From Bacilli bacterium (GTDB taxonomy: Bacteria > Bacillota_I > Bacilli_A > ML615J-28 > CAG-313): a stretch of 64,000 nt of DNA. Under the pieces are notes generated by a model. The model was given only the letters and a program-made list of their open reading frames with translations. It did no database searches and was not told the origin of the DNA. Shown piece by piece: positions 8,782 to 54,101 of this stretch (position 1 is its first letter; each line of letters begins with the position of its first letter). Both the position numbers and the translations under genes were made by a program. The stretch spans positions 2,418 through 66,417 of the forward strand of contig JAFQFT010000048.1 in the NCBI GenBank assembly GCA_017398545.1. The letters are read 5' to 3'.

Positions 8782-11700
8782 ATGAATTATTTTTTTATTA
8801 TAGATATAGTGTTACTAGTTATTCTAACTATTTCATTACTAGCAGGACTAATTAGGGGGTTTAAAAAATCTCTTAGAAGATTTATAGCATTGTTAATCCC
8901 AACAATTTGTTTGTTTATTTTCTTAGGCCCAATTACTAATGCAGTAATGAAAACAAAAGTGGATCTTGCTAAAATAGATAATATTGTTCATTTTATTCCT
9001 GATGAGTATACAAATGAACCTTATTCTATTAATGATGCAGTATCGATTATAGTGGCTGATAATATTTATCCAGATAGTGAAGCCTTACAACAAGATTCAA
9101 AAATGAATGAACTAATTATATCAGCTTCTTCAATGATTGTTAAGATTGTTGTATATTTTATAGGTTTATTCTTTGTTTGGTTAGTTAGTTTAATATTAAG
9201 ATTAGTATTTAGAATTATTTTTAGAAAAGCAAATAGAAAAGGTAAATTAATTGGACTTGGATTTGGTGCTTTACAATTTGTATTAATTTTTATTTTATAT
9301 TTATTACCTTTATTCGGTGTTGTTTCTTTTGCAAGTTCAGTTATTCATGAAGTAGATAAATATTATGAAGATGAATCTATAAAAGAAGTAATTGAATATG
9401 CAGATTTATATGAAAATACAATAACTAAAAAATATGTTTTAAATACTGCAACAAAAATCTTATGTACTGATAAATCAGTTTCATGCGATGCACAATTTGT
9501 AATGGGTGGTTTATCGTTTAAAGTTGATGGAGAAAAAGTTGTTCTTTTAGATGAATATTTAGAAATAAAAGATGCAATCCCATCAGCTATGAAAATTATA
9601 GATTTAGTAAATAGTTTAGATGGTGAAGAACAAATTGTTAAACTTTCAAATCTATCTGATGAAGATATTGAAAATATTTCAAGTGTAATTAAAAATACAA
9701 AACTTATAAGAGTAGCTATTCCTGCTGCACTTGAATACGCAGTTTATAGTAGTAAAGATTCAGAAAATGATTATAGTGATTTAATTAGTAAATTAAATCA
9801 ATTAGATTGGGACAAAGAATTAAATGCTATTGCTGATTTAATTAATGTAATAAAAAATCATAATGATTTAGAAATAAACATTAGTTCATTGGATTATGCA
9901 TTAAAATCAAGTGGTGTTATTGATCTTGCAACAGACCTTGTTAACGGTGCATTACAAATGAATATCGTTACAGAAGTTGCTATTCCATTTGTAATAAATA
10001 TGTTAGAAGATGAATTCTCAAAAGGCGAGTTTGCAGAATATCAAATAGACTTTACACCTATCAAAAATATTAACTGGAAAACAGATGGTTCTAGTTTTGT
10101 AACAACTCTTACTAATGTATATAAAGAATATTTAAGAGTAGACATTAATTTTAGTGATATTAAAGTTGCGTTAAATGATACTAAATTACCTGATTTTATT
10201 ACATATGTATTTGATGAAATTGATAAATCAGTTATTATAACTGATACGTTACTTCCAACTGTAATGCAAGTTCTTATCGCAAACTTAGAACAAGAAGAAG
10301 ATATATCTAACTTAGGTATTGATTTTGAAGAATTGAAAAAAGTTAATTGGAAAGAAAACTTAAAACCTATTAAAAACTTATTACATGATTTAATTGAATC
10401 TTATCAAGTATTAGAAATTAATCCTGAAGATTTTAAAGCAGTATTAAAAAATAATAAATTACAAGCAGAACTAGATAAATCAATTACTAATATTTTAGAT
10501 TGTGATGTATTTACAAATTACTTATTACCAATGGTGATGAATGTTTTAATAGAAAAATTAGAAACTAATGAATCACTTTCTTCATTTAATTTTGATTTTG
10601 CAGCAATTAAAAACACAAATTGGAAAACTGAATTAACATATTTTAAAGATGTATTTGTAGAATTCTTAAATGCTTATCAAGGTTTAGATTTTAATAAAGA
10701 TGATTGGATGGCTATTTTAGATAACGAAAATCTTTCAACTTATATTACTAATATATATAATGAGGCTAAAGAGTCTTCACTTGTAAGTGAACATATATTA
10801 CCTAAGCTTCCTAATAAATTGCATGAATTAATTGATGGAGTAGATAGTTCGCTTGATGTTTCATTCTTAAAAGAACTTATAACAGAAGATTCTATTGATG
10901 CTTTATTAACAAACGATTTAGATAAATTAATTATTTTATTTAAAGAAATTAAAGCACTAGGTTTATTAGATGGGGCAGAACTTGATTATACAGATGCTAA
11001 TACACAAGATAGCTTAATAAATGTAATTAAAGAAATATTTGATTTAAGTGTTGTAAACGGAAAAGAAAAAGATATATTTAAATCAATAGTTACAATGATT
11101 AATATTGAACCAGTTTTAGAACAATATGATATTACATTAGATTATGAAAATGTGGAAAATTGGGATAAAGAAGTAGATTATATTTGTACAATCTTTAAAA
11201 ATACAATGACACTTACTGGTGATTTAGAAGGATTTGATTTAACAACGCTTTTAACAAAGATTTCTACTGAAGATGAAAAAAATAGAATTGCAGAAATTGT
11301 TGAAGCAATTGGATATAGTGATTTATTTGGTGATTCTATTTATACAATAATTGATACAGTATCAAAAGAAATTGATTCCACAATTGAAATTAATTTCACA
11401 AATGAAGAGAAAAACACAATTGAAAATATAAATGGTTGGAAATTCGAAGCATTACATATTCTAGAATTAGTTGAAAAAATTGATCATATTGATTTTGGGG
11501 TAGATTATGAACATCTCAATGCAGATGAAATAAAAGATATCATGATGTATTGCTCAGAAAGTGTTGTATCAACAAAACTATTTGGAAGTATACTTAATAA
11601 TGTATTTAGTGGAGTAGTTCATCAAGATTTTACTAACCAAGATGCAATGAGAAGTTCAGCAGATTTAATCTATAATGCAATCAAAGTAGCTTCGATTGTA

Positions 11701-12018
11701 CAAAATGATAGTATTGATTTAACAGACCCGACTGTTACAAATGAATTAATCGAATCAATTGAATCTATCGCAACATCAGAAGAAAATCTTGAACTTACAA
11801 ATCAATTAATTAATGATATTGTTGGTAATGAAACTCATGTTGATTATACTAAAGAAGAAATTATTGAAGCCGCAGAAGTAGTTGAGTCAATTATTACACA
11901 ATATCAAGATGCTACTGATCAAGATAATTTTGATTTAGATAACTTATCAGAAGAAGATAAAGAAATGATTGAGAACTCTGAAATTGCAAAAGCAATTCTA
12001 GATGCATTATTTAAATAA
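8782..12018 (+). CDS. giant-repeat protein, small paralog: CvpA-like membrane anchor plus acidic W-anchored ~90-aa helical repeats
   Basis: 1078 aa. The N-terminus IIDIVLLVILTISLLAGLIRGFKKSLRRFIALL is CvpA-like. More helices extend to about aa 190, with a K/R loop (RKANRKGK). The rest is D/E/N/I/L-rich, with Trp anchor codons at nt 9808, 10075, 10348, 10621, 11161 and 11437 (aa 343, 432, 523, 614, 794, 886; about 90-aa spacing). Confidence 0.8.
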   Translation: MNYFFIIDIVLLVILTISLLAGLIRGFKKSLRRFIALLIPTICLFIFLGPITNAVMKTKVDLAKIDNIVHFIPDEYTNEPYSINDAVSIIVADNIYPDSEALQQDSKMNELIISASSMIVKIVVYFIGLFFVWLVSLILRLVFRIIFRKANRKGKLIGLGFGALQFVLIFILYLLPLFGVVSFASSVIHEVDKYYEDESIKEVIEYADLYENTITKKYVLNTATKILCTDKSVSCDAQFVMGGLSFKVDGEKVVLLDEYLEIKDAIPSAMKIIDLVNSLDGEEQIVKLSNLSDEDIENISSVIKNTKLIRVAIPAALEYAVYSSKDSENDYSDLISKLNQLDWDKELNAIADLINVIKNHNDLEINISSLDYALKSSGVIDLATDLVNGALQMNIVTEVAIPFVINMLEDEFSKGEFAEYQIDFTPIKNINWKTDGSSFVTTLTNVYKEYLRVDINFSDIKVALNDTKLPDFITYVFDEIDKSVIITDTLLPTVMQVLIANLEQEEDISNLGIDFEELKKVNWKENLKPIKNLLHDLIESYQVLEINPEDFKAVLKNNKLQAELDKSITNILDCDVFTNYLLPMVMNVLIEKLETNESLSSFNFDFAAIKNTNWKTELTYFKDVFVEFLNAYQGLDFNKDDWMAILDNENLSTYITNIYNEAKESSLVSEHILPKLPNKLHELIDGVDSSLDVSFLKELITEDSIDALLTNDLDKLIILFKEIKALGLLDGAELDYTDANTQDSLINVIKEIFDLSVVNGKEKDIFKSIVTMINIEPVLEQYDITLDYENVENWDKEVDYICTIFKNTMTLTGDLEGFDLTTLLTKISTEDEKNRIAEIVEAIGYSDLFGDSIYTIIDTVSKEIDSTIEINFTNEEKNTIENINGWKFEALHILELVEKIDHIDFGVDYEHLNADEIKDIMMYCSESVVSTKLFGSILNNVFSGVVHQDFTNQDAMRSSADLIYNAIKVASIVQNDSIDLTDPTVTNELIESIESIATSEENLELTNQLINDIVGNETHVDYTKEEIIEAAEVVESIITQYQDATDQDNFDLDNLSEEDKEMIENSEIAKAILDALFK

Positions 12019-12034
12019 AAAATTAAATAACCTA

Positions 12035-12063
12035 TTTACAAAAAGAAATTAATGTGATATACT
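12035..12063 (+). promoter_or_regulatory. strong sigma-A-type promoter with extended -10, directly after the 1078-aa gene stop
   Basis: TTTACA (12035-12040), 17-nt spacer ending in TGa, TATACT (12058-12063). Confidence 0.6.
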
Positions 12064-12069
12064 ATAACC

Positions 12070-12165
12070 AGAAGTAATCAGTTTCACTCGCATGAAACTC
12101 TTCTTCCTTAAGTAGAAAAGTCCCTTTTTAAAATAATGGTGTATTGGAGGGACTTTTTATATTCT
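12070..12165 (+). ncRNA. candidate ~90-nt small RNA (type I antitoxin-like)
   Basis: Bounded by the promoter at 12035-12063 and the hairpin at 12116-12157 plus its T-run. It contains hairpin AGTTTCA-ctcgca-TGAAACT, then the single-stranded CTTCTTCCTT (12100-12109), which complements the RBS region of the convergent small ORF. There is no ORF with an RBS inside. Confidence 0.4.
12116..12157. terminator. bidirectional hairpin shared by the candidate sRNA and the convergent small ORF
   Basis: Stem AAAAGTCCC / GGGACTTTT with a large 24-nt loop. TTTTTAT follows on + and TTTTCTACTT on -. It would also terminate the 1078-aa gene transcript. Confidence 0.5.
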
Positions 12166-12321
12166 ACTTTTTTTGTTCTTTTTTATATAACTTATAAAAG
12201 TTATCATCGCACTTATTAATCTGAATACTTCAGTAATAAACTTGATTATACTAATAAACATTGCTTCTTCCTTTCTTTGGAGAAGCACTTTTTTATTAAT
12301 AAGAAATATAAAAAGTTTCAT
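12157..12321 (-). CDS. small amphipathic peptide with basic tail (type I toxin-like), 54 aa; alternative 34-aa form from internal ATG 12261
   Basis: Hand translation: MKLFIFLINKKVLLQRKEEAMFISIIKFITEVFRLISAMITFISYIKKNKKSRI. There is a strong RBS (AAAGGAGA) 8 nt upstream of ATG 12321 and a second RBS (AAAGGAAG) before the internal ATG. The stop abuts the bidirectional hairpin. It is not in the supplied ORF track because it is under 60 aa. Confidence 0.4.
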   Translation of the reverse strand: MKLFIFLINKKVLLQRKEEAMFISIIKFITEVFRLISAMITFISYIKKNKKSRI

Positions 12322-12389
12322 GTGCTATTCTCCTTTCTTATACCCCCTATTAAATAAGAAATATAGAAGAAGAGTACACATCCCCAGGT

Positions 12390-12417
12390 AATATATATAA
12401 TACTGTATACGAGTAAA
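12390..12417 (-). promoter_or_regulatory. candidate promoter for the small minus-strand ORF
   Basis: On the minus strand: TTTACT (12417-12412), 16-nt spacer, TATATT (12395-12390). This gives a 5' UTR of about 60 nt. Confidence 0.35.
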
Positions 12418-12540
12418 CCAAATCACTTCATATACATAATTAGCAGAACTAGGGTAAATTGCTCTTTTTATTTAAGAAAAGTTTTCGACAACTATTTACA
12501 TTTGAATTTCTATTATTGAAAAAATAAAATCTAATTTATA

Positions 12541-12786: not shown

Positions 12787-15700
12787 ATGATGGATTTTAA
12801 TCTGATATTGTTATTAGTCGGGTTGGGATTACTAGTACTAGTAGCAGTATTTGTACTTTTAGGTTGTTTCGCTGGTCTAAAGAAAGAACTTAAATGTGCA
12901 GCTATTGGCTTTGTAGTGTTACTTTTAACATTACTAGTCTTTGGCAACTCTTCAACAATCCTTGATTTTAATGGGTCATTGTTGAAGAATTTCATTCAGG
13001 GAATTCCAAGCTCTGCAGAAACTATTTGGGACTGCATTTTAGCACTTGTTCAAACAAATGTTCCTGGTGGGGCTGAGATCTTTGCTGAAGGAACAAAATC
13101 CTATGCCTTTTTATACAGTGTTGTGAGCGGCGTTGCACGTGGTGCAATGTTAATCATTGGAACATTAGTAATGTTCATTCTATGTACTATCGGTCTTGGT
13201 ATTTACCGTTTAGTTAGTAGAATTGTTGCTCACAATAAAGCTAAGAAGCGTGCTGAATCTGGTATTGTGGAACCGCAACCAGAACAAGACAAAGTTATAA
13301 ATGACAATGTTTTAGTAGCACAATCAGAAGCTGGTGATGACGAAGGAGTTATGATTACGGCAAACAAAGAGCCTGTTAAGAAAGGTTCTGGCAAACATCG
13401 TGGATGGGCTGGAGCTCTTGCGGGACTTCGTGCTGTAATTGCAATTATCTTCTTATTCGCTCCTGTATCGGGTGTATGTTCGATTCTGGATGAGATTTCT
13501 CCTGAAACTGAAACACTTATAAATGAATCATTAAGCGGTAATAAACAAAACACTGCTGCATCAAACACTATCTTAGATGTTGTTCTTGATTTTAAAGATG
13601 CATATTACGATAGTGCAGTAGGTAAGTTTATTGAAGGTTCTAAATTCTTCTTTGGTGAATCATTTAGTATGCAACTTTTCGATAGTGCATTTGTTATTGA
13701 AGGCGACAAAAATAACATTGTAGTACGTGAAGAAGCTATTGTCTTTGTAGATGCTGTAAATGCACTAGAAGGCAATCTTGATTTGAAAAAGTTAGAATAT
13801 AGCCAAATCGCTAATGCTTTAGATGAATTAAAAAATTCTGAATTACTTGTTGAAGCTATGCCTGTTGCTATTGAAACAGCATACTACTATCCAATTAATG
13901 CAAATGGAAACATTAAATTAATGGGTACTAATGAATCTCTAAAAGATTTATTATTTGCTTCAAAACAACAAGCTGCATTCTTAGAATTAAGACAAGTAGA
14001 TTGGGATAAAAACATTGAGATTTTACTTGATACTGTTAAAGAGGCTTATAAACTTGGTGTCTTAGATGAAGATTTTAATTTCTTAACTATGGATCCAGAA
14101 CAATTAAGCGCTACAGTTGAAGTACTTCTTAAATCTGATGCAATTAATAGTATTTTAAATATTGCTGTTCAAACTGCATTAAAATTAGATGTTGTTAAAA
14201 ATAATGTTGGTGAATTACCTACAGCTGACTTATCTGATTTTAGCTGGGCAAAAGAATTTGAAAATATTATTGATATCTATGAAACATTCCAAGGTTTAGA
14301 AATTACTTCATTAAGTAATCTTGATATTAAAGCATTAGTTACTGAAATCGTAAATGATGAAGACAAACTTCAAATTGTTGTAGATATTGTTAAACAAGTT
14401 ACTGAATTACAACTAGTTAACAAAGTTGGTTATGACGCATTAGTTGGATATGTTTCAAATATGAGTCATGTAGTTAATGCTGGTGATGATGTTGTTAAAG
14501 CAGTAAAAGATTTAAAAGATGTTAATTGGTCAAATGATATTAATATTTATGTTGAAGCAGCAATTGAAGCACTACCACTAATTGAAATTGGTGATGGTTT
14601 AAAAATTAATGTTGATTATCTAAATTTAGATGTTGATACAATTAGAAATGTACTTGATATCTTATTTACTACTGAATCGTTTGAAAAATTACTTCCTGTT
14701 GGTGCAAGTATCGGTTTAAATATTGCATTATCTAACGAAAAAGTAATTGGATTCTTAGGTGATATTAAAGTAGAACTTGATACTTCTGCAATTAATTGGA
14801 AACAAGAAATTACAACTTTAGTTGATGCATATGATGAATTCCAAGATCTTGGAATTAAAGAACTAAATAAAGAAGTTGATTATAAAGCATTACTTACTGA
14901 CATTGCAAATGATAGTGCTAAAGTTGAAATTGTTGAAAATGTAATTGAAAAAGTTACTGAATCACAATTGATTAAAGAAGTAGTATATGGTGTTGCAATT
15001 GAATATGTATTAAACATTAAATCTATCCAAGATCAAGGTACTGATCTTGTAGAAGCAATTCAAGAACTAAAAGAACATGATTGGTCAAAAGATATTAATG
15101 CATATGTTGATGCAGCAATCGCAGCATTACCACTAATTGAAATTGAAGAAGGATTACAAATCAAAATTGATATTCTAAATTTAGATGCAGTACAACTTCA
15201 AGTTGTTATTGATACTTTATTTACTGCTGAATCATTTGAAAAACTTTTACCTGTTGTTGCAAACATTGGTTTAGATAAAGCATTATCTAACGCTAAAGTT
15301 AAAGAACTTATTGGTGAAGAAGCAATTGTTTATGATACTTCTAATGTTAACTGGAAACAAGACTTTACATCATTAGTTAACATTTATAGTACATTCCAAG
15401 AACTTGATATTAATAGTCTAGAAGACTTTAATGATATGTTAGCTGTTGCAAAACGTATCTTAGATAGTGAAAAACAAAGTGAAGCAGTTACATCAATTTT
15501 ACATCAACTTGTTGATATGACATTATATGAAGGCGTAATTATTCCATTTGCTGATGCTACTGTAACTAATTTAATTAGTACAAGAGCTTCAAACTTTGAA
15601 GGCATTTTAAATATTACAAAACTTAATAAAGATGCATGGAAAAATGATTTTGCTGATTTAGTAGCTATTGCTAGAAATGTTTACGGAATTTGTGAATTAG

Positions 15701-18700
15701 AATTCAAACTTGAAAATATTGATTTTGAACTTCTTTGTGGAGTTCTTGGTACAGAAACTATTGAGTTAGTATTTAACTTAAATTTACTTGATGGTGATGA
15801 AGCTAAAAATCAATTAGTTATTGCTTTATTAAAACAATTTAAAGTATTTGATGAAGAACAATTAGCAAACGTTGATTTAAGTGAAGTTATCTGGGTTTCA
15901 GATGGTGAATATTCAGAAGTTGCTAATTTCCAAGCAATCTTAACTGTTTTAGGTAAAATGCTTGAAATTGATGGAATTGATTTAAATAACTTTAAATTTG
16001 ACGTTAGTGACATTCTTGCTGATGAAGATGTTTATGGATATGCAGTAGATTTATTAGATGTAGTTGTTGATTCTAAATTAATCCTTGCATTAATGCCTAA
16101 CATTCTTGATAAATACGTTGTTCCTAGAGTTGAACAATGGGATGATGAAGATGGAACATTAAGTCAAATTATTACTGGTTTAGAATCTGATGAATTAGTA
16201 CTTGAAGTTCAAAAACTAGTTGATGTTGTAAAAGCTGTTGTTGATCTTAATGTATTAAATTACAAAGAAGAAGGTATCGAAGGTATTGATTTTGCTAATA
16301 CAGATGCTCTTAAAACAATCGTTAATGGTATTTTCGATTCTAAACTATTAGAAGGTTATGAATCAAGAGTAGTTCGTATCCTACTTAAAGTTACTAATAT
16401 TTTCCCTGATCTTGCAAAAGGCACATTTGATAGTGTTGATTTCGATAGTGAACAAGCAATCTTGATTGCTGCTATTGATGCGTTAGAAGTTGTACTTAAA
16501 GATGAAAACTTCTTAACACTTGATGAAAATGGTAAATTAAAATTAGATAAAGAATTCTACTTAAAAGATGAAACTTTAGATGCATTCTTAAATGCTTTAA
16601 AAGCATTATTCGGTGAATATAAAGAAGGTTCTTCAATTTATGGTTCACAAATCGTTGAAATTTTATTACCTGATTTATTTGAAAAATTTGTTGCTAAATT
16701 AATTCCAGAACAATTCGATGAATTAATGGCTATCTTAAATATTGATGGAGCTAATCCAAGACTTCTATCTGATGATATTCGTAAAGTAATTTATATTGCT
16801 GAATTATTAATTGATGAAAAAGTTCAATCATATTTACTTGGAAATGATTATAATTTCTCTAACATTATTGATGCTTTACAAGAAGTTGTTGAAACTGTAT
16901 TTAACTTAAATATGGTTAATGGAAGTGAAGCTGAACTTATGGCTTGGGCTCTTAACTATGTACAATCAACTGCTAAATTTAATATTGCTACATTTACAGC
17001 AGAAGATTTCGCAAATGTTGATTGGGATAAAGAAGTAGTTGCAATTAATACACTACTTGATGATGTAATTAAATTTACAAATGTTAATAAGATTTCTACA
17101 GTTAATAAATTAATTAACTTCATTAAGAATAAAGACTTCTTAAAAGATGATTTCTTACAAACTTATAATTACAATGTTATATTTGAAACTATTGAAGATT
17201 TATTTGATTTACAAACAATTGAATATACACTTCCAGTACTATTAGAATATGCATTAAATGTTGCAAAAGAAAAGAACTTTGATGTTTCATTCTTAGGTGA
17301 TAACATGACTAGTGAATTACTAGTTGAAGATGTTAAATCAATTGTTGAAGCATTAAAAGTTGCTGTTTATGATATTGAAATTTTAGAATATAAGAAAGCT
17401 AATTGGACAGGTGATCTTCCAGAAGTTGAATATGTTGTTGAAATTTTAGATATTATCGTTAACCTTAATCTTTTAGAAAATAAAGAAAAACAATTATTAC
17501 GTTACTTAGTAGATAAATTTATTCCTGCTAATCCTTATGTTAAAGCAAGTGATTTCACATTCGATTTACATTATGATTTCGATGCTGATTTTGAAATCAT
17601 AAAAGAAGCTTTACCATTAGTTTATGAATTAATTTATGCTAATAACATGACTAAGATTGAACAAGTTAAAGCATTCATTACTGAAAAATGGTATATGAAT
17701 ACTGATTTAGTTAAAGATTATAATATTACTCTTGCATGTGATTTAGTTGAAGTATTAAGTGATTTACAATTAGTTGAACAAGCATTATATGGTCTTGTTA
17801 ATAACATTACTGAATTAGAAGCTCTTACTAAGATTGGTGATTTCTCAAGTTTAGAAACTCTTTCAAGAAGAGAACTAGTTAGTGATCTTAAGACACTTGT
17901 AAGTATTGTTCGTCAAGGATTAGATGCTAATTTACTAGATTATTATGTATATAAAGATTTAGATTACATTGATTATGAAGGTCTTGCTGGTATCATTGAA
18001 ACTGTTGGAACACTTAACACAGTTAAATATTGTGGTTCTGATATTCTTCCAGAAGTACTAAATTATATTCTTTCTAAAAACTCTAAATTAAATATCAACC
18101 ATACATTTACTAAAGATGATTTTGCTGATGTAAATTGGGAAGAAGAAACAATTATTTTAGGTCAAGTATTAGTTGAAACTGGTGTATTATTAAATAATAT
18201 TAATCTTGATTCGTTATCAGATATCTTATTATTTATCAATCATAAAGATTATTTAAATACAATTATTTACACTGATGCTAACGCTAAACAACTTGTTAAT
18301 ATTCTTGATGTTGCTATTGAAAGTGAAATTGTTAAAGCTGTTGGTATTATTGGATTTGATCTTGCATTAGATTTAGCAAAAGATAAAGGATTAGATATTA
18401 CATTCTTAAGAGGTAAATTAACTAGTGATGATTTAATTAGTGATTTAGATGTAATTGTTGAAATTGCATTCAATGCTATTGAATTTGGTGCTGTTGAATA
18501 CGTTGTTACTAAGAATATTAATGATATCGATACTACATATCTTGTTAATATCGTTGCATTATTAGAAGAACTTAACATTCTAAAATGTTCACAACCTGAA
18601 TGGACTGAACTTGCAGTTTCTAAAATTGCTAAGTTATTAAAACTTGAAGTAGAAGTAGCTGCTGATAAATATAGTTCAATTGATTTTGCTAATGAAAATG

Positions 18701-21700
18701 TATTACTTCAAGAAGCTATCGCGTTAATTGGTCAAATACTTGAAAATGAAAATATTCATAGTATTGATGAAATTAAACAATTTATTGGTAATAAAGATTA
18801 CTTAGATATTAATGCTTATAATGATAGAGTAATTGCTAATGCACAAGATTTATTAGTTCTTGCATCTGAAAGTGATATTTTAGGTGTTCATTTAATTGAA
18901 TTATTTGATTATGCTATATCTCTTGCATCTTCTAAGACTAAGTTTGATTTATCATTTATGGAGGACGTTGTTACAACTAGTGAACTTCAATCTGATATTA
19001 GAAAGTTAGTTGAAATTAGTGATTACTTAGTTGAATTTGGTATTGTTGAATTAATTCTTCTTGGTGATGTTGCAATTAATTTAGATCCAATTATTGAAAT
19101 GGTTCCTTTATTAGAAGAAGTTAATCTTCTTACTAAGACTAATGATTATATTGCAGAAATCGTTTATAATATGATTCTTCCTAAGATTGGTTTAAAATCT
19201 GTTGATGTTGAACACTTCGAAGATATCAATTTCGCAAATGAAAATGCTGTATTAGTTAAAGTATTAGAAGAAGCTAAAGTATTATTAGAACTTGAAAACT
19301 TTACTACTGTATCTGATGTTGTATCATTTGTTAAGAATAAAGAATACTTATATTCTGATAAATATGAACAAACATTTGCTAGTGATGCAGTTGAATCAAT
19401 GTTTAGACTTGTTCAATTAGCAGTTTCTAGTGAGCTTGTTCAATTAGAACTTGTTCCATTATTCAATTATGGTGTTTCTAAACTATCTGAAAAAGTTGAT
19501 GTTTCATTCTTAGAAGACAGTGTTAAAACATCTGAACTAGTAAGTGATGTTGATGTATTAATTAAGATGGCAAGACTTGCTATTGAATTTGGTGCATTAG
19601 AATATGTATTTACTAAGAATATTGAAGTTGTTAATCTTGAACCAGTAATTGAAATTGTTGCTTTATTAGAAGAATTAAATATCGCTAAGAACAACGATAG
19701 AGAACTTAGTGCATTTGTATTTAACTTTATTTATGATAAACTTGGTATTAATAAAGATGCTAACGAATTAGTTAAAGCAAAACAAGGTCGTTCATCTAAA
19801 GTTAAACCTAGTGAATTTGTATATATCAATTATGCAAGTGAAAACTTAATTCTTCAAGATGCTCTTGAAGTAGTTAGCTTGTTACAAGAAGACTTTGGTT
19901 TAATTTCATTAAATGATATTATTGAATTTGTTAAGAACAAAGAATATACTAAGATTAGAGAATTTAGTGCTCCAGTTTATACTCATGCATTAGATTTAAT
20001 TAATGTTGCTACTGTTTCTACATTAGTTCAATATGCACTTCCTACTTTAGCAGACTTTGGTTTAGATAAAGTAAGTGGAAAAGGATATGACTTCACATAC
20101 CTTTCAGGTGTATTTACTGGTGCTGAACTTGCAAATGATATTAGAGTTATTGCTAAAGAAGCAGTATTCTGGTTAAGAGATAATAACATTTTAACTGCTC
20201 TTGATAATAAAGCTATTGAATCTTACTATTTTGATGAATTAGCTGAAACTATTAAAGCATTTAAAGATGTTAATATTCTAAATTATGAACAAGCTACTCT
20301 AGTTACTAAACTTACTAATATAATTTATGAAAAAGTGTTCAAGTATGAAGGTAGAATTAATGAAGCTTACTTTGCAGATGTTAATTGGGCTGTTGAATTT
20401 GATAATGTTGCTGCATTATTAGTTGAACTTGGTGATATCATTGAAACATTTGGTGTTGAAAATAATTTATTATCACTTTCTGGATTAAACGAATTCAAAG
20501 CTAATGCTAAGAATATTGAAATCTATAATGATGAAGAATTATTAAATAACTTTGCAGATGTTCTAGTTGCTCTAAGTAAATCAAGCGCATTATTATCTGA
20601 ACTTGAATTTGCAGAAGAATACTTAATTTCTAGATTTGCTGCTAAAGGCATTACATTAAATTCAATCTATACTACTAAAGAAGGTCTTGCTGAAGATTTA
20701 ATTACTTTAAGCGATGCATTATATGTTGTATATCCTTCTAACGTTTTAGGATTTGCTACTGGTAAAGAAGAACTTAACCAAGCATATGTAGTTGAACTTG
20801 TTGCTGCTATTGAATCAATTCTTGATATGAACTTATTAGCAGAATCTAAGTCTGACATTCTTGATTTAGTATTCGGTAAACTTGGCATTAATGTTGATAA
20901 AACAAATCTTGATGCTATAGTTTGGGAAAATGCTGAAACTGAAGTTGTTGGTGACTTATTACTTGCTGTTAATGATTTAATGGTTGAACTAGAAGTATTA
21001 ACAATTCAAGATGTTAAAGCTATTAATGTAAAAGAATACTTAACAATTAATTATGAAACTAATGATCAATTAGCTGCTATTAATGCTGTTCTTAATGTTG
21101 TATTAGAAAGTAAGTTAGTTGAAGCTTCATTATTTGGTATTTCTGAAAAATACTTAAATAGTGAAAAATTAAGTGGATATGCTGATTTACATGTTATCTA
21201 TACAGATGCTGCACAAGTTAAAGAAGACTTAGCTAAATTAGTTGCTGTAATTGATGCCGTTATTGAATTAAATGTATGTAGTTTCTTAGTTGAAGGTTCT
21301 AACATTCCATATGAAAATAAAGCTGCTATTGAAACTATTATTTATAATGTATTAACATTAAATTACTTAAATAATGAAGGTAGAATTAGTGAACTTGTTT
21401 CTAAAGTATCTTCAATCGATACATCAAGCATTAATTTTGATAATATTGATTTAGTAAATGATGCTCAATTATTAATTGATGCATATGAAGAATTATATCC
21501 AATCTTAATTTCAGATGAATTCTTCTTGAAGACTAAGAATGATCTTAAATATATTACTAAAGAAGATATTAAGTTCTTAATTAATGAAGAAAACTTACCT
21601 TCTGTTAGAGATGCTTTAAATAATATTCTTGATACTACTATCGTATCTGAAACAAATGGTGCTATCTTCTTATTAGTAGCTCCTCTAATTAAGAAAGCTG

Positions 21701-24700
21701 CTCCTAAATATTATGAAGCTATTGATCCTGAAAGATTAACAGTTGAAGAACTTGGCGAAGATGTAACTGCAATCTTTGACTTAGTTAGAGATGTTCTTGA
21801 TGCTGATCTTAACAGAATCGGTAAAGGTGAGATTTTCAATGCTGATGTTGAAGAATTAATTTCTAATGTAATTAACACAATTGCAAATCTAAATCTTCTT
21901 AATAGTAGATTTGATGATCTTGCATTAGTTATTGCAGATGATCTTGATTCTAAACGTGTTGGCAATTACTACTTTGATAAGTCATTATATAACTTAACTG
22001 ATGTAATGTATGAATCAGATTTACTTGCATTAATTGATGTTATTGCTGCTGTTTATGATTTATTTGAAGCTGAAAATATTGCTACAATTCAAGATGTAAT
22101 TGATTTCTTTGGTAATAAAGCTAATGTTATTGAATTATTAGCTAATACTACTCAAGTTAATAATCTTGAAAATATTATTAAATTAGTTACTGAACTTACA
22201 TTTGTTCAACACAATATTTTACCTGTATATAACGAAGCATTACAAGGTAAATTAGCAAAATTAGTTGGTTCTGAACTTGCAGATGTAACTTGCGTATATG
22301 CTACAAGCGAAGAAATGACTAATGACATTACAAGAATTCTTGATGTATTTAGAGATTTAATTGATCTAGGTGTATTTGAAGTATTAGATGGTGCTGAAAT
22401 TAATTATGATCAAGTTGCTCTTGTTAAGAAACTTCTTGCTGATATTGCTTCAGTTGAATATGTAAATGTTCAAAAACAAAATATTTTAGAATTTGTTGAT
22501 AGTAAAGTTAAAGCTGATCTATCTAAATTAGATGTTTCATCAATGGATTTAGTTAATGATTTAACTATAATTGGTGAAATGTATGAACAATTAATCCCAG
22601 TTCTATTATCTGAATATAATGCATTTACTACTGTATCTGCTTTTAAAGAAGGTACAATTGTTAAATCCGATTTATATGCTCTTATTTATGATTATCAATC
22701 AATCTATCCATCAGTTGTAACATTATTTAGTGAAGTTTCTATTGCTCCACAATTAGTTAAATTGGCTGCTGATTCAGCAAGCAATGGATTAACTGGAATT
22801 GCTAAACAAATCGTTGAAGTACTTGATGTTGAAAATGCTAGTGATGCAGATATTATTGAAGACCTTGTTGCTAGTGCTACAGTATTAGGCTATGTTAAAG
22901 ATCTTGACTTATTAAATAAAGTTCTTTACAAAGAAGATATTGCAGTTACTGACAATGAAACAATTGCTGCTCTAGTTGCAAGTGTATTTGAATTAAATAT
23001 TGTTGATAATAAGTTTGTTGAATTAGTTGAAGTTGTTCTTGAAGAAGTTCTTCATTTAGACTTAACTGATGTTGACTTAAATATTAATAATGTTGATAAA
23101 GAACAAGCACTTATTGTTGACTTAGTTAATAATGGTGTAATTGTTATGAATGATTTAGGTGCTCTAAACTTATCAGATGCTAAACCATTAATCCAAGATA
23201 TTAAGAATGTGTTAACTAGTGGTAATGTTAGTCTAGACGTTTATCTTCTTGTTGATAGTCTTGAATTATTAGTACAATCTGAATTATTTGAACAACTTGC
23301 AATTCCTACATATGAACAAAAAGTTTATCCTAAATTTACTGGTACTCTTGCTATTGCTGGAGATCTTCGTGATTATTCACAAGAACAATTTGCAGAAGAT
23401 TTAGATTTAATTACTGAAATGATTAATGATTTCAAAGTTTCTGGTCTTGATGATTTAATCTTTAAGGGTGTTACTCCTGAAAAAACTTGCATCCCATACT
23501 TAGAAAGAATTATTAGAAATCTATGTATGTTAAATATTGTTGAAGTTAAGAAAGCTGATGTTCCTACTTGTCTTCAAGATGTATTAGATAAGCAAGGTTT
23601 AACTTCAGTTATTAGAGAATACGTTGAAGACTTTGACTTAACTAAGTATGACTTATCATCTATTAGTTTCAAATCTGATGCTGATATTTATGCTTCTATG
23701 GCTCAACAAATTTATATCATTCTTGAAACTGTAATTAAGGAAGGATTTGATGCTCCATTCTTCGGTAAACATGATGCTATGGTTGCTCTTGTTGAAATTT
23801 ATGAAATTTCTCTAGATACAACTTTAGTTAAAGTAGTTGCTGATAAAGTATTAAGTGTTGCTAGTGAAGTTGCTGGTGCATTTGATTTAACAGTAAATGA
23901 AAATGATGAAGAAGTTCTTATCAATATTGCTAACTTCTTATATGGTTTAGTTGATTTAGGTGTAGTTGGTGCTGATGCTATTGATTTCACTGATAAAGAT
24001 ACTATTGATGTAATGATTCAATCTGTTTATAACATCGTTACAATTCCTGAAGAAATTAAAGTATGGGTTACTAAAGTTGCTTCAAGATTATATGCTTATG
24101 GTGTTGTACCATTTGATTGGAACATTGTAACATTTGCTAATGAATTAACAGTAGTTAATAATTTAGTTTCACAAATTGTTTCATTCAATCATGAAATTAA
24201 CGCTGCTGCATTTGTTAATCCAGCTGTTCAAGCTGATATTAATGAAATGATTTATACAATTAGTGATTCTTCATTTGTTGAACAATTATTCTTCCCATTC
24301 GTTGAGGGTACATTTAAAGCATTAACATTATCATATACTGATGGTGAAATGGTTTACGATGCTACACTAGATGATGTATTAGAATATTCACTTCCTAACT
24401 TCTGGAAATTAGTTAATGCTGCTTATGAAATTACTGAATTTAAGTATGGTTTATCTGCTAATCTAATTCTTGATAACTTAGGTTCTGTTAGAGCAATCGT
24501 TGAAGTATTAGGTACTGATATTATGATTAAAGATAATCTTGCTAAGATTATTGCAACAGGTATTGGTGTATTTACTGATTATGACCTATCTGATGAAGAA
24601 TATGCTGAATTACTTGCTATTGATTTCGAAAATGAAGTTGTATACTCAAATGCGTTCTTTGCTGCATTAGAAGATACTTATAACAATTATCCATTCTCAT

Positions 24701-26013
24701 TAGACAAAGCTATGTTAAAAGATGCTAACGTTGTTAAAGGATTAGCTGATGCTATTGAAGAAATTTTACCAAGTGAAACAGTTAAAGTATTCGGAAGACT
24801 TGTAATTAATATTGTTAATAATAACTTAATTGTTAATATACTTCCTGAGGTTTCTACTATTGTTAATGATCGTCTATTTGATGATAATTATACAGATGAA
24901 TTAATCGTTGATGATTTACATATGATTGTTGAAATCTTAAGAAATGCTGCTGATTCTGGTATTCTAACTAATAGAACAGACTTTGCAAGTTGGAACTTCA
25001 CAGCTATTAGAAATATCGTTACTCTATGCTTCGATACTAACTTAGCTGATGGTTGTGCAAATGAACTTGCTGAAGCTTGTATTAGTGTTATTCCTGTTAT
25101 TAATGAATATTATGACTCAACAGTTGTAATTAATAATTGGGAAGATGAAGTTAATGCAATCGTTGATGCTCTTGAAGAATTAGTTAACCACGGTTTAGAT
25201 TCTATTTCTGATCCATTTGATGACAGAATTACTGGTGAATTAATGTATATATTAACTCAATCTGAAATTATTACAAATGGTATGGTAACTGAAGTTAATA
25301 AGGGTCTAAAAGATCATAATTTAAGTGATTATGAAATTACAGCTGATGATATTAAAGCTGTTCAAACTGCTGAAAAGTGGGATAAAGAACTAGTTGCATT
25401 AAGAAATATTGAATCTGTTGGTATCTTAAATTCTAAAGATTCATTAACAGATGAAGATAGAGAAAATATTATTAATGCAGTTAAGTCGATTAAAGGTACT
25501 ATTTTATGTGATAAAGTATTATCTGAATCTGCTGAAACATTAGTTCCTAAACTACCAGTTATTAAGAACTATCCTGAAGCTCTTACAGATATTTCTGGTG
25601 ATGAATGGTCAGTTGAATTACATATCATTATCGATGCATTAGATGTATTACCTATCGATATTGCTACAGTAGAAAATCCAATCGAAACATTAACTGGTGA
25701 AATGATGGTAGCTTCATTAAAATCTAAGATTTTAACTACCGCAATCACAAGTGAATTTAACCATCAATTAGTTAATTTAGATTTACCATTTACAGTTGCT
25801 GAAAGTGATTTAACATCAATTCAAACTGCTGCTGAATGGGATACTGAACTTGACACAATTCTTGAAATTAAGGATGTATTAGATAACTATGAAAACGGTA
25901 CTGTAACTCTTCCTCAAGTAGTTACTCTATACAATAAAGTAGTTGCTGAAACAGTTCTTGCTGAAAAGATTTTAGTTAAGGCATTAGATGATAGAGGTAT
26001 TACTCTTGCATAA
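12787..26013 (+). CDS. giant-repeat protein, large paralog: CvpA-like membrane anchor plus ~4150 aa of acidic W-anchored helical repeats
   Basis: Uninterrupted 4408-aa ORF. The N-terminal 230 aa or so hold about five hydrophobic helices (LILLLVGLGLLVLVAVFVLLGCFAGLKKELK...), K/R-rich loops (AHNKAKKRAE, KKGSGKHRGW) and a last helix (LRAVIAIIFLFAPVSGVCSIL). The remainder is D/E/I/L/V/N-rich and poor in Cys, Pro, His and Arg. A [VI]-[ND]-W-x-x-[DE] anchor recurs about every 90 aa (Trp codons at nt 14002, 14245, 14527, 14797, 15082, 15352, 15637, and more). Confidence 0.85.
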   Translation: MMDFNLILLLVGLGLLVLVAVFVLLGCFAGLKKELKCAAIGFVVLLLTLLVFGNSSTILDFNGSLLKNFIQGIPSSAETIWDCILALVQTNVPGGAEIFAEGTKSYAFLYSVVSGVARGAMLIIGTLVMFILCTIGLGIYRLVSRIVAHNKAKKRAESGIVEPQPEQDKVINDNVLVAQSEAGDDEGVMITANKEPVKKGSGKHRGWAGALAGLRAVIAIIFLFAPVSGVCSILDEISPETETLINESLSGNKQNTAASNTILDVVLDFKDAYYDSAVGKFIEGSKFFFGESFSMQLFDSAFVIEGDKNNIVVREEAIVFVDAVNALEGNLDLKKLEYSQIANALDELKNSELLVEAMPVAIETAYYYPINANGNIKLMGTNESLKDLLFASKQQAAFLELRQVDWDKNIEILLDTVKEAYKLGVLDEDFNFLTMDPEQLSATVEVLLKSDAINSILNIAVQTALKLDVVKNNVGELPTADLSDFSWAKEFENIIDIYETFQGLEITSLSNLDIKALVTEIVNDEDKLQIVVDIVKQVTELQLVNKVGYDALVGYVSNMSHVVNAGDDVVKAVKDLKDVNWSNDINIYVEAAIEALPLIEIGDGLKINVDYLNLDVDTIRNVLDILFTTESFEKLLPVGASIGLNIALSNEKVIGFLGDIKVELDTSAINWKQEITTLVDAYDEFQDLGIKELNKEVDYKALLTDIANDSAKVEIVENVIEKVTESQLIKEVVYGVAIEYVLNIKSIQDQGTDLVEAIQELKEHDWSKDINAYVDAAIAALPLIEIEEGLQIKIDILNLDAVQLQVVIDTLFTAESFEKLLPVVANIGLDKALSNAKVKELIGEEAIVYDTSNVNWKQDFTSLVNIYSTFQELDINSLEDFNDMLAVAKRILDSEKQSEAVTSILHQLVDMTLYEGVIIPFADATVTNLISTRASNFEGILNITKLNKDAWKNDFADLVAIARNVYGICELEFKLENIDFELLCGVLGTETIELVFNLNLLDGDEAKNQLVIALLKQFKVFDEEQLANVDLSEVIWVSDGEYSEVANFQAILTVLGKMLEIDGIDLNNFKFDVSDILADEDVYGYAVDLLDVVVDSKLILALMPNILDKYVVPRVEQWDDEDGTLSQIITGLESDELVLEVQKLVDVVKAVVDLNVLNYKEEGIEGIDFANTDALKTIVNGIFDSKLLEGYESRVVRILLKVTNIFPDLAKGTFDSVDFDSEQAILIAAIDALEVVLKDENFLTLDENGKLKLDKEFYLKDETLDAFLNALKALFGEYKEGSSIYGSQIVEILLPDLFEKFVAKLIPEQFDELMAILNIDGANPRLLSDDIRKVIYIAELLIDEKVQSYLLGNDYNFSNIIDALQEVVETVFNLNMVNGSEAELMAWALNYVQSTAKFNIATFTAEDFANVDWDKEVVAINTLLDDVIKFTNVNKISTVNKLINFIKNKDFLKDDFLQTYNYNVIFETIEDLFDLQTIEYTLPVLLEYALNVAKEKNFDVSFLGDNMTSELLVEDVKSIVEALKVAVYDIEILEYKKANWTGDLPEVEYVVEILDIIVNLNLLENKEKQLLRYLVDKFIPANPYVKASDFTFDLHYDFDADFEIIKEALPLVYELIYANNMTKIEQVKAFITEKWYMNTDLVKDYNITLACDLVEVLSDLQLVEQALYGLVNNITELEALTKIGDFSSLETLSRRELVSDLKTLVSIVRQGLDANLLDYYVYKDLDYIDYEGLAGIIETVGTLNTVKYCGSDILPEVLNYILSKNSKLNINHTFTKDDFADVNWEEETIILGQVLVETGVLLNNINLDSLSDILLFINHKDYLNTIIYTDANAKQLVNILDVAIESEIVKAVGIIGFDLALDLAKDKGLDITFLRGKLTSDDLISDLDVIVEIAFNAIEFGAVEYVVTKNINDIDTTYLVNIVALLEELNILKCSQPEWTELAVSKIAKLLKLEVEVAADKYSSIDFANENVLLQEAIALIGQILENENIHSIDEIKQFIGNKDYLDINAYNDRVIANAQDLLVLASESDILGVHLIELFDYAISLASSKTKFDLSFMEDVVTTSELQSDIRKLVEISDYLVEFGIVELILLGDVAINLDPIIEMVPLLEEVNLLTKTNDYIAEIVYNMILPKIGLKSVDVEHFEDINFANENAVLVKVLEEAKVLLELENFTTVSDVVSFVKNKEYLYSDKYEQTFASDAVESMFRLVQLAVSSELVQLELVPLFNYGVSKLSEKVDVSFLEDSVKTSELVSDVDVLIKMARLAIEFGALEYVFTKNIEVVNLEPVIEIVALLEELNIAKNNDRELSAFVFNFIYDKLGINKDANELVKAKQGRSSKVKPSEFVYINYASENLILQDALEVVSLLQEDFGLISLNDIIEFVKNKEYTKIREFSAPVYTHALDLINVATVSTLVQYALPTLADFGLDKVSGKGYDFTYLSGVFTGAELANDIRVIAKEAVFWLRDNNILTALDNKAIESYYFDELAETIKAFKDVNILNYEQATLVTKLTNIIYEKVFKYEGRINEAYFADVNWAVEFDNVAALLVELGDIIETFGVENNLLSLSGLNEFKANAKNIEIYNDEELLNNFADVLVALSKSSALLSELEFAEEYLISRFAAKGITLNSIYTTKEGLAEDLITLSDALYVVYPSNVLGFATGKEELNQAYVVELVAAIESILDMNLLAESKSDILDLVFGKLGINVDKTNLDAIVWENAETEVVGDLLLAVNDLMVELEVLTIQDVKAINVKEYLTINYETNDQLAAINAVLNVVLESKLVEASLFGISEKYLNSEKLSGYADLHVIYTDAAQVKEDLAKLVAVIDAVIELNVCSFLVEGSNIPYENKAAIETIIYNVLTLNYLNNEGRISELVSKVSSIDTSSINFDNIDLVNDAQLLIDAYEELYPILISDEFFLKTKNDLKYITKEDIKFLINEENLPSVRDALNNILDTTIVSETNGAIFLLVAPLIKKAAPKYYEAIDPERLTVEELGEDVTAIFDLVRDVLDADLNRIGKGEIFNADVEELISNVINTIANLNLLNSRFDDLALVIADDLDSKRVGNYYFDKSLYNLTDVMYESDLLALIDVIAAVYDLFEAENIATIQDVIDFFGNKANVIELLANTTQVNNLENIIKLVTELTFVQHNILPVYNEALQGKLAKLVGSELADVTCVYATSEEMTNDITRILDVFRDLIDLGVFEVLDGAEINYDQVALVKKLLADIASVEYVNVQKQNILEFVDSKVKADLSKLDVSSMDLVNDLTIIGEMYEQLIPVLLSEYNAFTTVSAFKEGTIVKSDLYALIYDYQSIYPSVVTLFSEVSIAPQLVKLAADSASNGLTGIAKQIVEVLDVENASDADIIEDLVASATVLGYVKDLDLLNKVLYKEDIAVTDNETIAALVASVFELNIVDNKFVELVEVVLEEVLHLDLTDVDLNINNVDKEQALIVDLVNNGVIVMNDLGALNLSDAKPLIQDIKNVLTSGNVSLDVYLLVDSLELLVQSELFEQLAIPTYEQKVYPKFTGTLAIAGDLRDYSQEQFAEDLDLITEMINDFKVSGLDDLIFKGVTPEKTCIPYLERIIRNLCMLNIVEVKKADVPTCLQDVLDKQGLTSVIREYVEDFDLTKYDLSSISFKSDADIYASMAQQIYIILETVIKEGFDAPFFGKHDAMVALVEIYEISLDTTLVKVVADKVLSVASEVAGAFDLTVNENDEEVLINIANFLYGLVDLGVVGADAIDFTDKDTIDVMIQSVYNIVTIPEEIKVWVTKVASRLYAYGVVPFDWNIVTFANELTVVNNLVSQIVSFNHEINAAAFVNPAVQADINEMIYTISDSSFVEQLFFPFVEGTFKALTLSYTDGEMVYDATLDDVLEYSLPNFWKLVNAAYEITEFKYGLSANLILDNLGSVRAIVEVLGTDIMIKDNLAKIIATGIGVFTDYDLSDEEYAELLAIDFENEVVYSNAFFAALEDTYNNYPFSLDKAMLKDANVVKGLADAIEEILPSETVKVFGRLVINIVNNNLIVNILPEVSTIVNDRLFDDNYTDELIVDDLHMIVEILRNAADSGILTNRTDFASWNFTAIRNIVTLCFDTNLADGCANELAEACISVIPVINEYYDSTVVINNWEDEVNAIVDALEELVNHGLDSISDPFDDRITGELMYILTQSEIITNGMVTEVNKGLKDHNLSDYEITADDIKAVQTAEKWDKELVALRNIESVGILNSKDSLTDEDRENIINAVKSIKGTILCDKVLSESAETLVPKLPVIKNYPEALTDISGDEWSVELHIIIDALDVLPIDIATVENPIETLTGEMMVASLKSKILTTAITSEFNHQLVNLDLPFTVAESDLTSIQTAAEWDTELDTILEIKDVLDNYENGTVTLPQVVTLYNKVVAETVLAEKILVKALDDRGITLA
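14245..15354 (+). repeat. tandem 555-bp (185-aa) duplication inside the giant gene
   Basis: Unit 1 (FSWAKEFENIIDIYETFQGLEI...TESFEKLLPVGASIGLNIALSNEKV) and unit 2 (INWKQEITTLVDAYDEFQDLGI...AESFEKLLPVVANIGLDKALSNAKV) align colinearly. Similarity is still visible in the DNA, for example gaatcgtttgaaaaattacttcctgttggtgcaag against gaatcatttgaaaaacttttacctgttgttgcaaa, 555 bp apart. Confidence 0.8.
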
Positions 26014-53829: not shown

Positions 53830-54101
53830 TAAAAATATAATAAACGTTGAACAGGATACGATTATTAGATGCGTGTTTTAAAGTGAGGTAGGATAGTGAA
53901 AACTACTAAATAATGGCTAATGATTACTCCCTGAGAGTTTTTCTTTAGAAATTTAGAACGTATATCTGCGTTAAAGATAATAAAGGGCATAAGAATATTA
54001 CTTATGAACTAAGGTGGTACCGCGCCTGTTTAGTTAAAGCCTGCTAAACATACGTCCTTAGATAAATGTATTTTTTCATATACAATTATCTAAGGCTTTT
54101 T
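53830..54101 (+). promoter_or_regulatory. T-box riboswitch leader (threonine)
   Basis: Conserved T-box sequence AAGGTGGTACCGCG (54011-54024). A specifier-loop-like AGTGAAAACTACTAAA contains ACU (Thr) triplets followed by A. Has an F-box-like GCGTTA. The terminator stem CCTTAGATAA (54056-54065) / TTATCTAAGG (54086-54095) plus a T-run can alternate with the T-box antiterminator. Confidence 0.85.

Follow-up and report, generated by a model that had tools for sequence, protein, structure and literature searches.

What occupies the spacer between two giant genes is the question raised by a stretch of 64,000 nt from a Bacilli bacterium (assembly GCA_017398545.1, contig JAFQFT010000048.1, positions 2,418 to 66,417; hereafter the window, to whose numbering positions refer unless another contig is named). 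The initial annotation had proposed at 12035-12417 a type I toxin-antitoxin (TA)-like module, in which a minus-strand open reading frame (ORF) for a small membrane peptide and a plus-strand small RNA (sRNA) converge. Every sequence feature listed there is present in the DNA, apart from minor corrections, and the module is probably one copy of an undescribed, chromosomal type I TA-like family of this clade. The conserved unit is larger than the interval first flagged: an nhmmer profile made from 15 copies extends it to 12028-12501, about 475 bp within the spacer between ORFs of 1078 and 4408 amino acids (aa).

Copies of the module and its predicted convergent transcripts

Relatives of the locus were fetched via the neighbouring 1078-aa protein, and DNA pattern scans were made with the sRNA motif and, independently, with the 5' motif of the toxin mRNA as queries. 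About 23 full copies, and decayed ones, are found in the window, in three related metagenome-assembled genomes (MAGs), in a fourth MAG that carries a sister family, and on four metagenome contigs. The element is conserved, and it occupies syntenic loci in relatives. In the 91%-identical Erysipelotrichaceae MAG SIG222, the same spacer holds two full tandem copies and a remnant; in a 73%-identical MAG, the module is missing at the 1078-aa-gene locus. The DNA scans gave true copies only in SIG222 and in the Bacilli MAGs T1900044572 and RGIG9028, the other matches being due to chance. One copy is situated on metagenome contig L037, and three more were reached by the protein route, as 52-aa proteins (P0001-P0003) on contigs L041-L043. 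L041 covers the same locus and comes from a strain of the same species as the window, and the same sRNA is present in all three contigs, whose copies were retrieved independently of the DNA search pattern. The nhmmer profile also uncovers decayed or deleted copies and the divergent sister family, and it finds no second copy in the 64-kb window. The fold, leader and pairing analyses described below cover 19 main-family copies.

Tandem arrays hold 2-3 copies each, and copies are situated at housekeeping loci shared across species (an M42 peptidase with an Hsp33-like gene; GAPDH; a HAD hydrolase with an asparaginase). Viral contigs yielded no copy, a tblastn search gave no match on plasmids, and a peptide-based metagenome scan returned 600 pattern matches, none of which was confirmed by tblastn. 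The carriers are Erysipelotrichaceae-like gut Bacillota, uncultured and AT-rich, that make up a small clade, and in them the module is chromosomal.

On the plus strand, the extended -10 promoter proposed for the sRNA is confirmed, TG included (Table 1), and both CTATTTACAAA and TATGnTATAnT are invariant or nearly so across the aligned copies. The predicted antitoxin sRNA of about 90-95 nt folds with a minimum free energy (MFE) of -23.7 kcal/mol (z = -3.34). The alignment of the 19 sRNAs contains invariant blocks, and the conserved parts are the 5' GAAG, a hairpin with the arms GUUUCA/UGAAAC, the CU-rich ACUCUUCUUC, and the terminator. In the sister family, the hairpin is compensated to GUUUU/AAAAC. 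The generic type I TA arrangement, in which an sRNA gene with its own promoter adjoins the toxin gene and is complementary to the toxin mRNA, appears to be present. A second plus-strand promoter inside the module was considered and dropped, its consensus matches being poor. No terminator separates the 1078-aa gene, which stops at 12018, from the sRNA promoter at 12035; therefore a plus-strand RNA signal would mix read-through with the sRNA. The 1078-aa gene probably ends its transcription at the bidirectional terminator of the module.

The 10-nt direct repeat CTTCTTCCTT described at 12100-12109 and 12264-12273 is borne out, and these are its sole two copies in 64 kb (0.13 expected; at least two in 0 of 100 shuffles). 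Likewise, ACTCTTCTTC occurs in 64 kb only at plus 12097-12106 and minus 12375-12366 (0.17 expected). The bidirectional hairpin said to be shared by the two RNAs has arms, AAAAGTCCCT (12116-12125) and AGGGACTTTT (12148-12157), that are 100% complementary. Its stems are invariant, and its loops, unusually long at ~16-30 nt, are not alignable between paralogous copies, a variability that would fit copy-specific kissing-loop recognition. The predicted RNAs overlap by ~50 nt at their 3' ends with perfect complementarity, giving in cofolding a 50-bp duplex with an interaction free energy (ddG) of about -50 to -53 kcal/mol.

On the minus strand, the position of the toxin promoter is conserved, and an invariant GGGGATRTG block starts 5-7 nt downstream of it. 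Transcription would begin at about 12385-12383, at GGGGAU, and would give an mRNA of about 275 nt, whose predicted fold has a z of -5.33. The 54-aa ORF reported from 12321 down to 12157 is present with the quoted translation; the spacer between AAAGGAGA and its first ATG is 7 nt, not 8 nt. The internal Met (12261) yields a 34-aa peptide as stated, and the peptides of relatives (31-32 aa, e.g., MFISIIKFITEVFRLISAMITFISSIKKNKKK, MSDLIRLITEIIRLVSILLKFLCSIIKNKRK, and MITNIIKLITEIFRLISLIISFLCSRKKNKKK) are equivalent to this internal-Met ORF. The peptide ORF is under purifying selection, with a ratio of nonsynonymous to synonymous differences (pN/pS) of 0.34, summed over pairs, and most of the variation at third codon positions.

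The peptide is a predicted cationic amphipathic helix with K7, E11, and R14 on one face. Its amphipathic moment is 0.47 in the window (reached by 0.1% of shuffles) and 0.39-0.60 across the main family (reached by at most 0.4%); the net charge is +5 to +7, the mean hydrophobicity 0.37-0.56, and the C-terminal tail KKNKKK. Pro occurs in no copy and Gly in one copy only (L037). With 34 aa here, 31-32 aa in relatives and 28 aa in the sister family, the ORFs have the size (<60 aa) of the small hydrophobic-peptide genes of type I TA systems. The window peptide ends in KKSRI and that of the same-species L041 in KKK, one base having been lost in an A-run; the loss may be a genuine frameshift or an error of assembly in the homopolymer.

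The sister family has an unlike 28-aa peptide, M(K/R)ISLIAAIINLITAIINFLK(I/N)ILRNRK, in the same architecture, and ACUCUUCUUC is again carried by the sRNA and by the 5' end of the mRNA. Its copies are situated at L008 3959-4357, L020 2841-3213 (a deleted copy), and L074 1088-1864 (a tandem pair). L074 (JAZLBY010000006.1) bears the label Candidatus Scatovivens (Clostridia), but with 29% GC and the HAD-gene neighbourhood of the Erysipelotrichaceae-like MAGs it may be mis-binned or mislabelled.

Predicted masking of start sites and antisense pairing

In the MFE folds of all 19 copies, the toxin mRNA has two domains, stem-loops SL1 and SL2. Its predicted 5' end carries the invariant GGGGAURUG-ACUCUUCUUCU, part of which is complementary to a Shine-Dalgarno sequence (anti-SD). 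In SL1, the 5' ACUCUUCUU pairs with the upstream SD (SD1), and the 5' AUGUGU pairs with ACACAU across the start codon of a leader ORF. The initial annotation had suggested that the ribosome-binding site (RBS) is sequestered within the mRNA itself, and both of the ways that it named are upheld by prediction: the 5' CUCUUCUUC pairs with SD1 with a probability of ~0.86, the GGAG of SD1 being paired with a probability of ~1.0, and the hairpin TGCTTCT...AGAAGCA masks the toxin SD (SD2), whose core is paired with a probability of 0.75-1.0.

Both domains, a kind of structure expected in the par family, are backed by covariation. The SL2 stem changes in a compensatory manner (GCUUCU/AGAAGC, GCUCCUCC/GGAGGAGC, CCUCCU/AGGAGG); 7 of its 8 pairs (helix 5) have double-sided changes, and 95.5% of its cells are paired. 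Helices 1-3, in SL1, contribute 8 pairs with double-sided changes. In the whole alignment of 22 instances to a covariance model (CM) built on the main-group consensus, 91.7% of cells pair, compared with 44-53% in slid controls, and changes on both sides are seen in 24 of 36 pairs; the covariation score is 0.32 vs. 0.05-0.08, and none of 500 shuffles attains such values. The CM-guided alignment was used because RNAalifold, applied to a plain MAFFT alignment of all groups, mis-paired SL1. With its 5' motif invariant, the anti-SD:SD1 helix varies on one side alone (U-A to U-G).

A leader start codon (ATG, GTG or TTG) is found downstream of the SD1 GGAG in all 19 copies, mostly 7-9 nt and overall 3-12 nt after it. 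The leader ORF runs into or through SL2 and stops at -19 to +13 relative to the toxin ATG, with an ATGA overlap in 4 copies, or continues in frame into the toxin ORF as a fusion (5 of 19, including the window). All three relative frames are used, because the length of the A-run varies, and early stops interrupt the two remaining frames in most cases. The leader of the sister family is unrelated in sequence and has the same design, being fused in one copy and ending in an ATGA overlap in two. Since the leader reads into or through SL2 in all copies, translation of the toxin is likely to be coupled to that of the leader.

Table 1. Features of the module in window coordinates
Feature	Position	Strand	Particulars
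Whole conserved module	12028..12501		nhmmer profile, 412.7 bits
sRNA promoter	12035..12063	+	-35 TTTACA 12035-12040, N17, extended -10 TG-n-TATACT ending at 12063; 10/12 consensus
Predicted antitoxin sRNA	12070..12163	+	about 90-95 nt, predicted ends; 5' GAAG, hairpin 1 (12080-12099), terminator
CU-rich anti-SD motif of the sRNA linker	12097..12109	+	ACTCTTCTTCCTT; ACUCUUCUUC invariant in every copy
Shared bidirectional terminator	12116..12157	both	invariant stem, long hypervariable loop (~16-22 nt)
Toxin ORF	12157..12261	-	34 aa + stop, MFISIIKFITEVFRLISAMITFISYIKKNKKSRI; conserved as 31-32 aa in all full copies
SL2	12262..12287	-	sequesters toxin SD AAAGGAAGAAG (12274-12264) directly upstream of the toxin AUG; covariation
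Leader ORF	12262..12321	-	ATG 12321-12319, start after SD1 in 19/19; fused in frame to the toxin ORF here, giving the 54-aa ORF
SL1, 5'-terminal stem-loop	12320..12381	-	cis anti-SD ACUCUUCUUCU (12375-12365) pairs with upstream SD AAGAAAGGAGAA (12339-12328)
Toxin mRNA promoter	12390..12417	-	-35 TTTACT 12417-12412, N16, -10 TATATT 12395-12390; 9/12 consensus
Conserved distal block	12420..12492		kept in all copies

The best local target of the sRNA linker is the toxin RBS in 14 of the 19 copies, at -12 to -14 kcal/mol (-14.0 in the window) and over 7-10 nt; the target is the 10-nt repeat in the window and a 7-nt core, CTTCTTC, in most copies. These values come from windowed duplexes; unrestricted RNAduplex runs on the whole RNAs gave meaningless giant-loop interactions. 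The anti-RBS role first ascribed to the repeat stands as regards the complementarity to the RBS of the internal start, but pairing there is predicted only without the cis anti-SD: after this had been removed in silico, 17 of the 19 copies gave a pairing of the sRNA motif to one of the two SDs (SD1 or SD2). The suggested cofolding of the two RNAs likewise gave the 50-bp duplex at the 3' ends, but no duplex beyond the terminator against the fully folded mRNA. The simultaneous formation of the anti-SD:SD2 helix and the terminator duplex is a pseudoknot, which the cofold model cannot represent, and a forced-pairing run was uninformative. A conserved contact between the GUUUCA arm of the sRNA hairpin and UGAAAC at the leader start was also considered, and was dropped on finding UGAUAC in half of the copies.

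These features suggest the following scheme. The minus strand would encode an mRNA of ~275 nt for a 34-aa cationic amphipathic helix that presumably acts on membranes. The primary mRNA would be inert and doubly locked, with SD1 and part of the leader start held by the 5' anti-SD in SL1 and the toxin SD held in SL2, and translation of the leader would be needed for translation of the toxin, in a hok/mok-like manner. The plus-strand sRNA of ~90-95 nt, converging on the common terminator, would dock through the terminator loop and stem, the hypervariable loop providing specificity, and docking may result in a stable complex or in cleavage by RNase III. Once the toxin or leader SD had been unmasked by 5' processing or by unwinding of SL2, ACUCUUCUUC of the sRNA would pair with it in trans. 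The anti-SD of the sRNA would then replace the cis lock whenever an SD is exposed. This last step requires an opening event, which is postulated because no consistent pairing is predicted against the folded mRNA.

Alternative explanations

Several observations count against a type I TA reading of the module. At equilibrium, cofolding with the fully folded mRNA does not consistently pair the 5' domain of the sRNA to either of the SDs. Nor does the sRNA motif ever covary with these SDs; G-U tolerance alone preserves the pairing, and any CU-rich stretch can pair with any SD. The motif, described at first as single-stranded, does lie in the linker of the sRNA but is in part tied up in a helix of 4 bp that involves the 5' GAAG. 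The covariation was counted after fitting the alignment to the CM, a procedure biased in favor of the structure that was modelled. Since the copies belong to a small number of related genomes, many of the shared features are inherited and not independently kept. Among known toxins, no relative of the peptide could be detected.

It is unlikely, though it deserves serious attention, that the product is a non-toxic small membrane protein, such as a regulatory or stress micropeptide, under the control of a cis-encoded antisense sRNA, and not part of a TA pair. The structural evidence fits a gene of this kind equally well, the peptide lacks homology to proven toxins, and the copies are situated at stable syntenic chromosomal sites and not on mobile elements. 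What speaks for a toxin instead is that two SD locks combined with an antisense RNA are typical of products that are kept off, that paralogues, tandem arrays and decayed copies resemble type I TA families, and that the peptide is hydrophobic, amphipathic and poly-lysine-tailed like pore-forming peptides.

There is little reason to believe that the plus-strand RNA is a trans-acting sRNA with a generic anti-SD seed, or the terminator and 3' untranslated region (UTR) of the upstream gene, its link with the peptide being incidental. The CU-rich motif would indeed pair with most SD sequences, and read-through is likely, there being no terminator ahead of the sRNA promoter. However, an sRNA gene with a conserved extended -10 is always found convergent with a peptide gene, whatever the neighbours and also in tandem arrays, and the sister family has the same arrangement with another peptide.

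It is slightly harder still to maintain that the real product in the window is the 54-aa protein starting at 12321, the longer of the two forms given in the initial annotation. This start has a strong SD and an ATG, gene callers report 52-aa fused forms in three metagenome contigs, and the fusion recurs in 5 of 19 main-family copies. In the other 14, however, the upstream ORF either lies in another frame or ends close to the toxin ATG, and the leader sequence past the A-run is not conserved, whereas every copy keeps the internal ATG, the SD belonging to it, and a peptide of 31-34 aa. Because the leader part varies in frame and start codon, the 54-aa ORF is not the conserved product, which is the 34-aa peptide from the internal Met.

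An inert or selfish repeated intergenic element with an incidental promoter, ORF and hairpins, as the multiple and tandem copies of ~475 bp, the internal inverted similarity and the truncated copies might suggest, is barely credible in view of the codon-level purifying selection on the ORF, the compensatory changes in the RNA helices, the retention of both promoters and of the start codons, the occupation of the same loci in different species, and the lack of any transposase, terminal inverted repeats or target duplications on inspection.

Known systems, surroundings and significance

The module, preferably read as a type I TA-like locus, is unrelated in sequence to any described family, as judged from database searches. 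Rfam 15 gave no match on either strand at gathering thresholds and only noise at E <= 10. The peptide has no match in Pfam or NCBIfam even at E <= 1-10, or in PADLOC and a PDB profile search, and a single weak match in PHROGs (E = 0.019) is regarded as noise. An exhaustive phmmer search of 1.84 billion representative proteins found only the fused form of the same cluster, a protein search with a concatenate of four peptides found nothing, and one with the 54-aa ORF found three fused relatives only (P0001-P0003). A literature search yielded no report linking type I TA systems with Erysipelotrichaceae.

The architecture matches that of par (Fst/RNA II), with an added hok/mok-like leader. The RNA features that define par-like loci have been listed (PMC7472228; PMC8594479). 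The par locus of Enterococcus faecalis pAD1 (Fst/RNA I-RNA II) and SprA1/SprA1AS of Staphylococcus aureus have convergent promoters and a common bidirectional intrinsic terminator, and both elements are kept in all copies here. As in these loci, the terminator stem-loops are complementary and the antisense RNA lies outside the ORF. A direct repeat in the DNA, read from both strands, adds a second stretch of complementarity at the toxin initiation region, though pairing there is not predicted against the folded mRNA. The comparison with the RNA I/RNA II logic made in the initial annotation is supported by a unit that recurs about 23 times, with both promoters and the shared terminator conserved. 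In Fst/RNA II and SprA1 the antisense RNA leaves the ORF free (PMC8594479), and the translational block postulated here would likewise fall outside the overlap.

The differences from par are as clear. The module has one repeat and not a DRa/DRb pair, no second direct repeat having been found; it has an extra upstream SD and a leader ORF, and its mRNA carries in cis, at the 5' terminus, the anti-SD motif that the sRNA supplies in trans. Its RNA matches no Rfam family, and its peptide is unrelated. The likeness to Fst and PepA1 seen earlier does not hold, as the peptide is amphipathic and cationic, lacks PXXXG and has no Pfam Fst match, whereas Fst and PepA1 are uniformly hydrophobic (PMC7472228). 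Their amphipathic moments are 0.06-0.17 for the reference sequences used, compared with 0.39-0.60 for the module peptides.

A leader ORF also occurs in Hok/Sok and Ldr/Rdl (PMC8594479). There it has its own SD and overlaps the toxin start; in the module it likewise has its own SD and reaches or nears that start, which makes coupling probable. The primary transcript of hok/mok/sok is folded inert via its 5'-terminal nucleotides, as is predicted here. In contrast to hok, the sRNA of the module is 3'-convergent and not opposite the leader initiation region, the host belongs to a Gram-positive-type lineage, and nothing points to activation by 3' processing. The module is unrelated in sequence to Hok and Ldr, and its peptide has no Hok or Gef match in Pfam. 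TisB of Escherichia coli is, like the module peptide, an amphipathic helix of ~30 aa with a charged face (moment 0.35 for the reference sequence, vs. 0.39-0.60). An inert primary mRNA with an antitoxin that acts on the activated form is a concept that TisB/IstR-1 shares with the scheme proposed for the module. IstR-1 is divergently encoded and binds a standby site, and tisB is SOS-regulated; no homology with this system, and no counterpart of the divergent IstR-1, the standby site or the SOS regulation, is seen in the module.

Beyond the toxin promoter, the distal block (Table 1) reads on the plus strand as a weak-terminator-like AGCA...TGCT, then a T-run, then GTTTTCGACAA, and in tandem arrays it directly adjoins the next sRNA promoter. 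The minus-strand segment 12437-12405 (TGAAGTGATTTGGTTTACTCGTAT) is similar to the sRNA 5' region 12071-12093, a likeness suggestive of an old inverted duplication within the module. At the far end, 12493-12503 (ACTATTTACAT) repeats the -35 part of the sRNA promoter, and the next tandem module starts at the equivalent position (L001 9237-10359, L008 3502-4357, L011, L020, L074 1088-1864).

The flanking giant ORFs (8782-12018, 1078 aa; 12787-26013, 4408 aa) have almost no recognisable domains. A CvpA/Colicin_V-like N-terminus is the only match of the former, and the first 1071 aa of the latter have no significant match in Pfam. Relatives have two further ORFs after the 1078-aa gene, a small conserved one (MKK.FETPTIEII.FD.N...GW) and one for a small membrane protein (L001 10601-10717; L002 6136-6290); the spacer in the window is without both. 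Elsewhere in the window, a T-box leader (Rfam RF00230, 93.7 bits) is situated at 53838-54062 (+), upstream of a 634-aa ORF (54125-56029).

Type I TA loci are often missed, since their peptides fall below gene-calling limits and their RNAs are not conserved between families. For the present family, only accidental in-frame fusions surface among ~1.8 billion representative proteins, and the profile and the CM can be used to annotate such loci in related MAGs. The finding would extend type I TA-like systems to uncultured gut Erysipelotrichaceae-like bacteria. The peptide would be a new short cationic amphipathic helix and a candidate membrane-active agent. The covariation-backed RNA design, with its two SD locks, its leader ORF and its anti-SD in cis and in trans, is directly testable. 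It is conceivable, though for now a tentative proposal, that this is a new type I TA family uniting the convergent antisense RNA of the par type, with target recognition via the shared terminator loop, and leader coupling of the hok/mok type, in which the antitoxin bears an exact copy of the 5'-terminal cis anti-SD of the mRNA and the loops confer specificity for the antitoxin's own toxin. If so, two regulatory designs so far described separately would be joined, the sRNA would be a stand-in in trans for the cis lock after processing or opening of the mRNA, and the hypervariable loops would make each paralogous sRNA specific for its own toxin mRNA.

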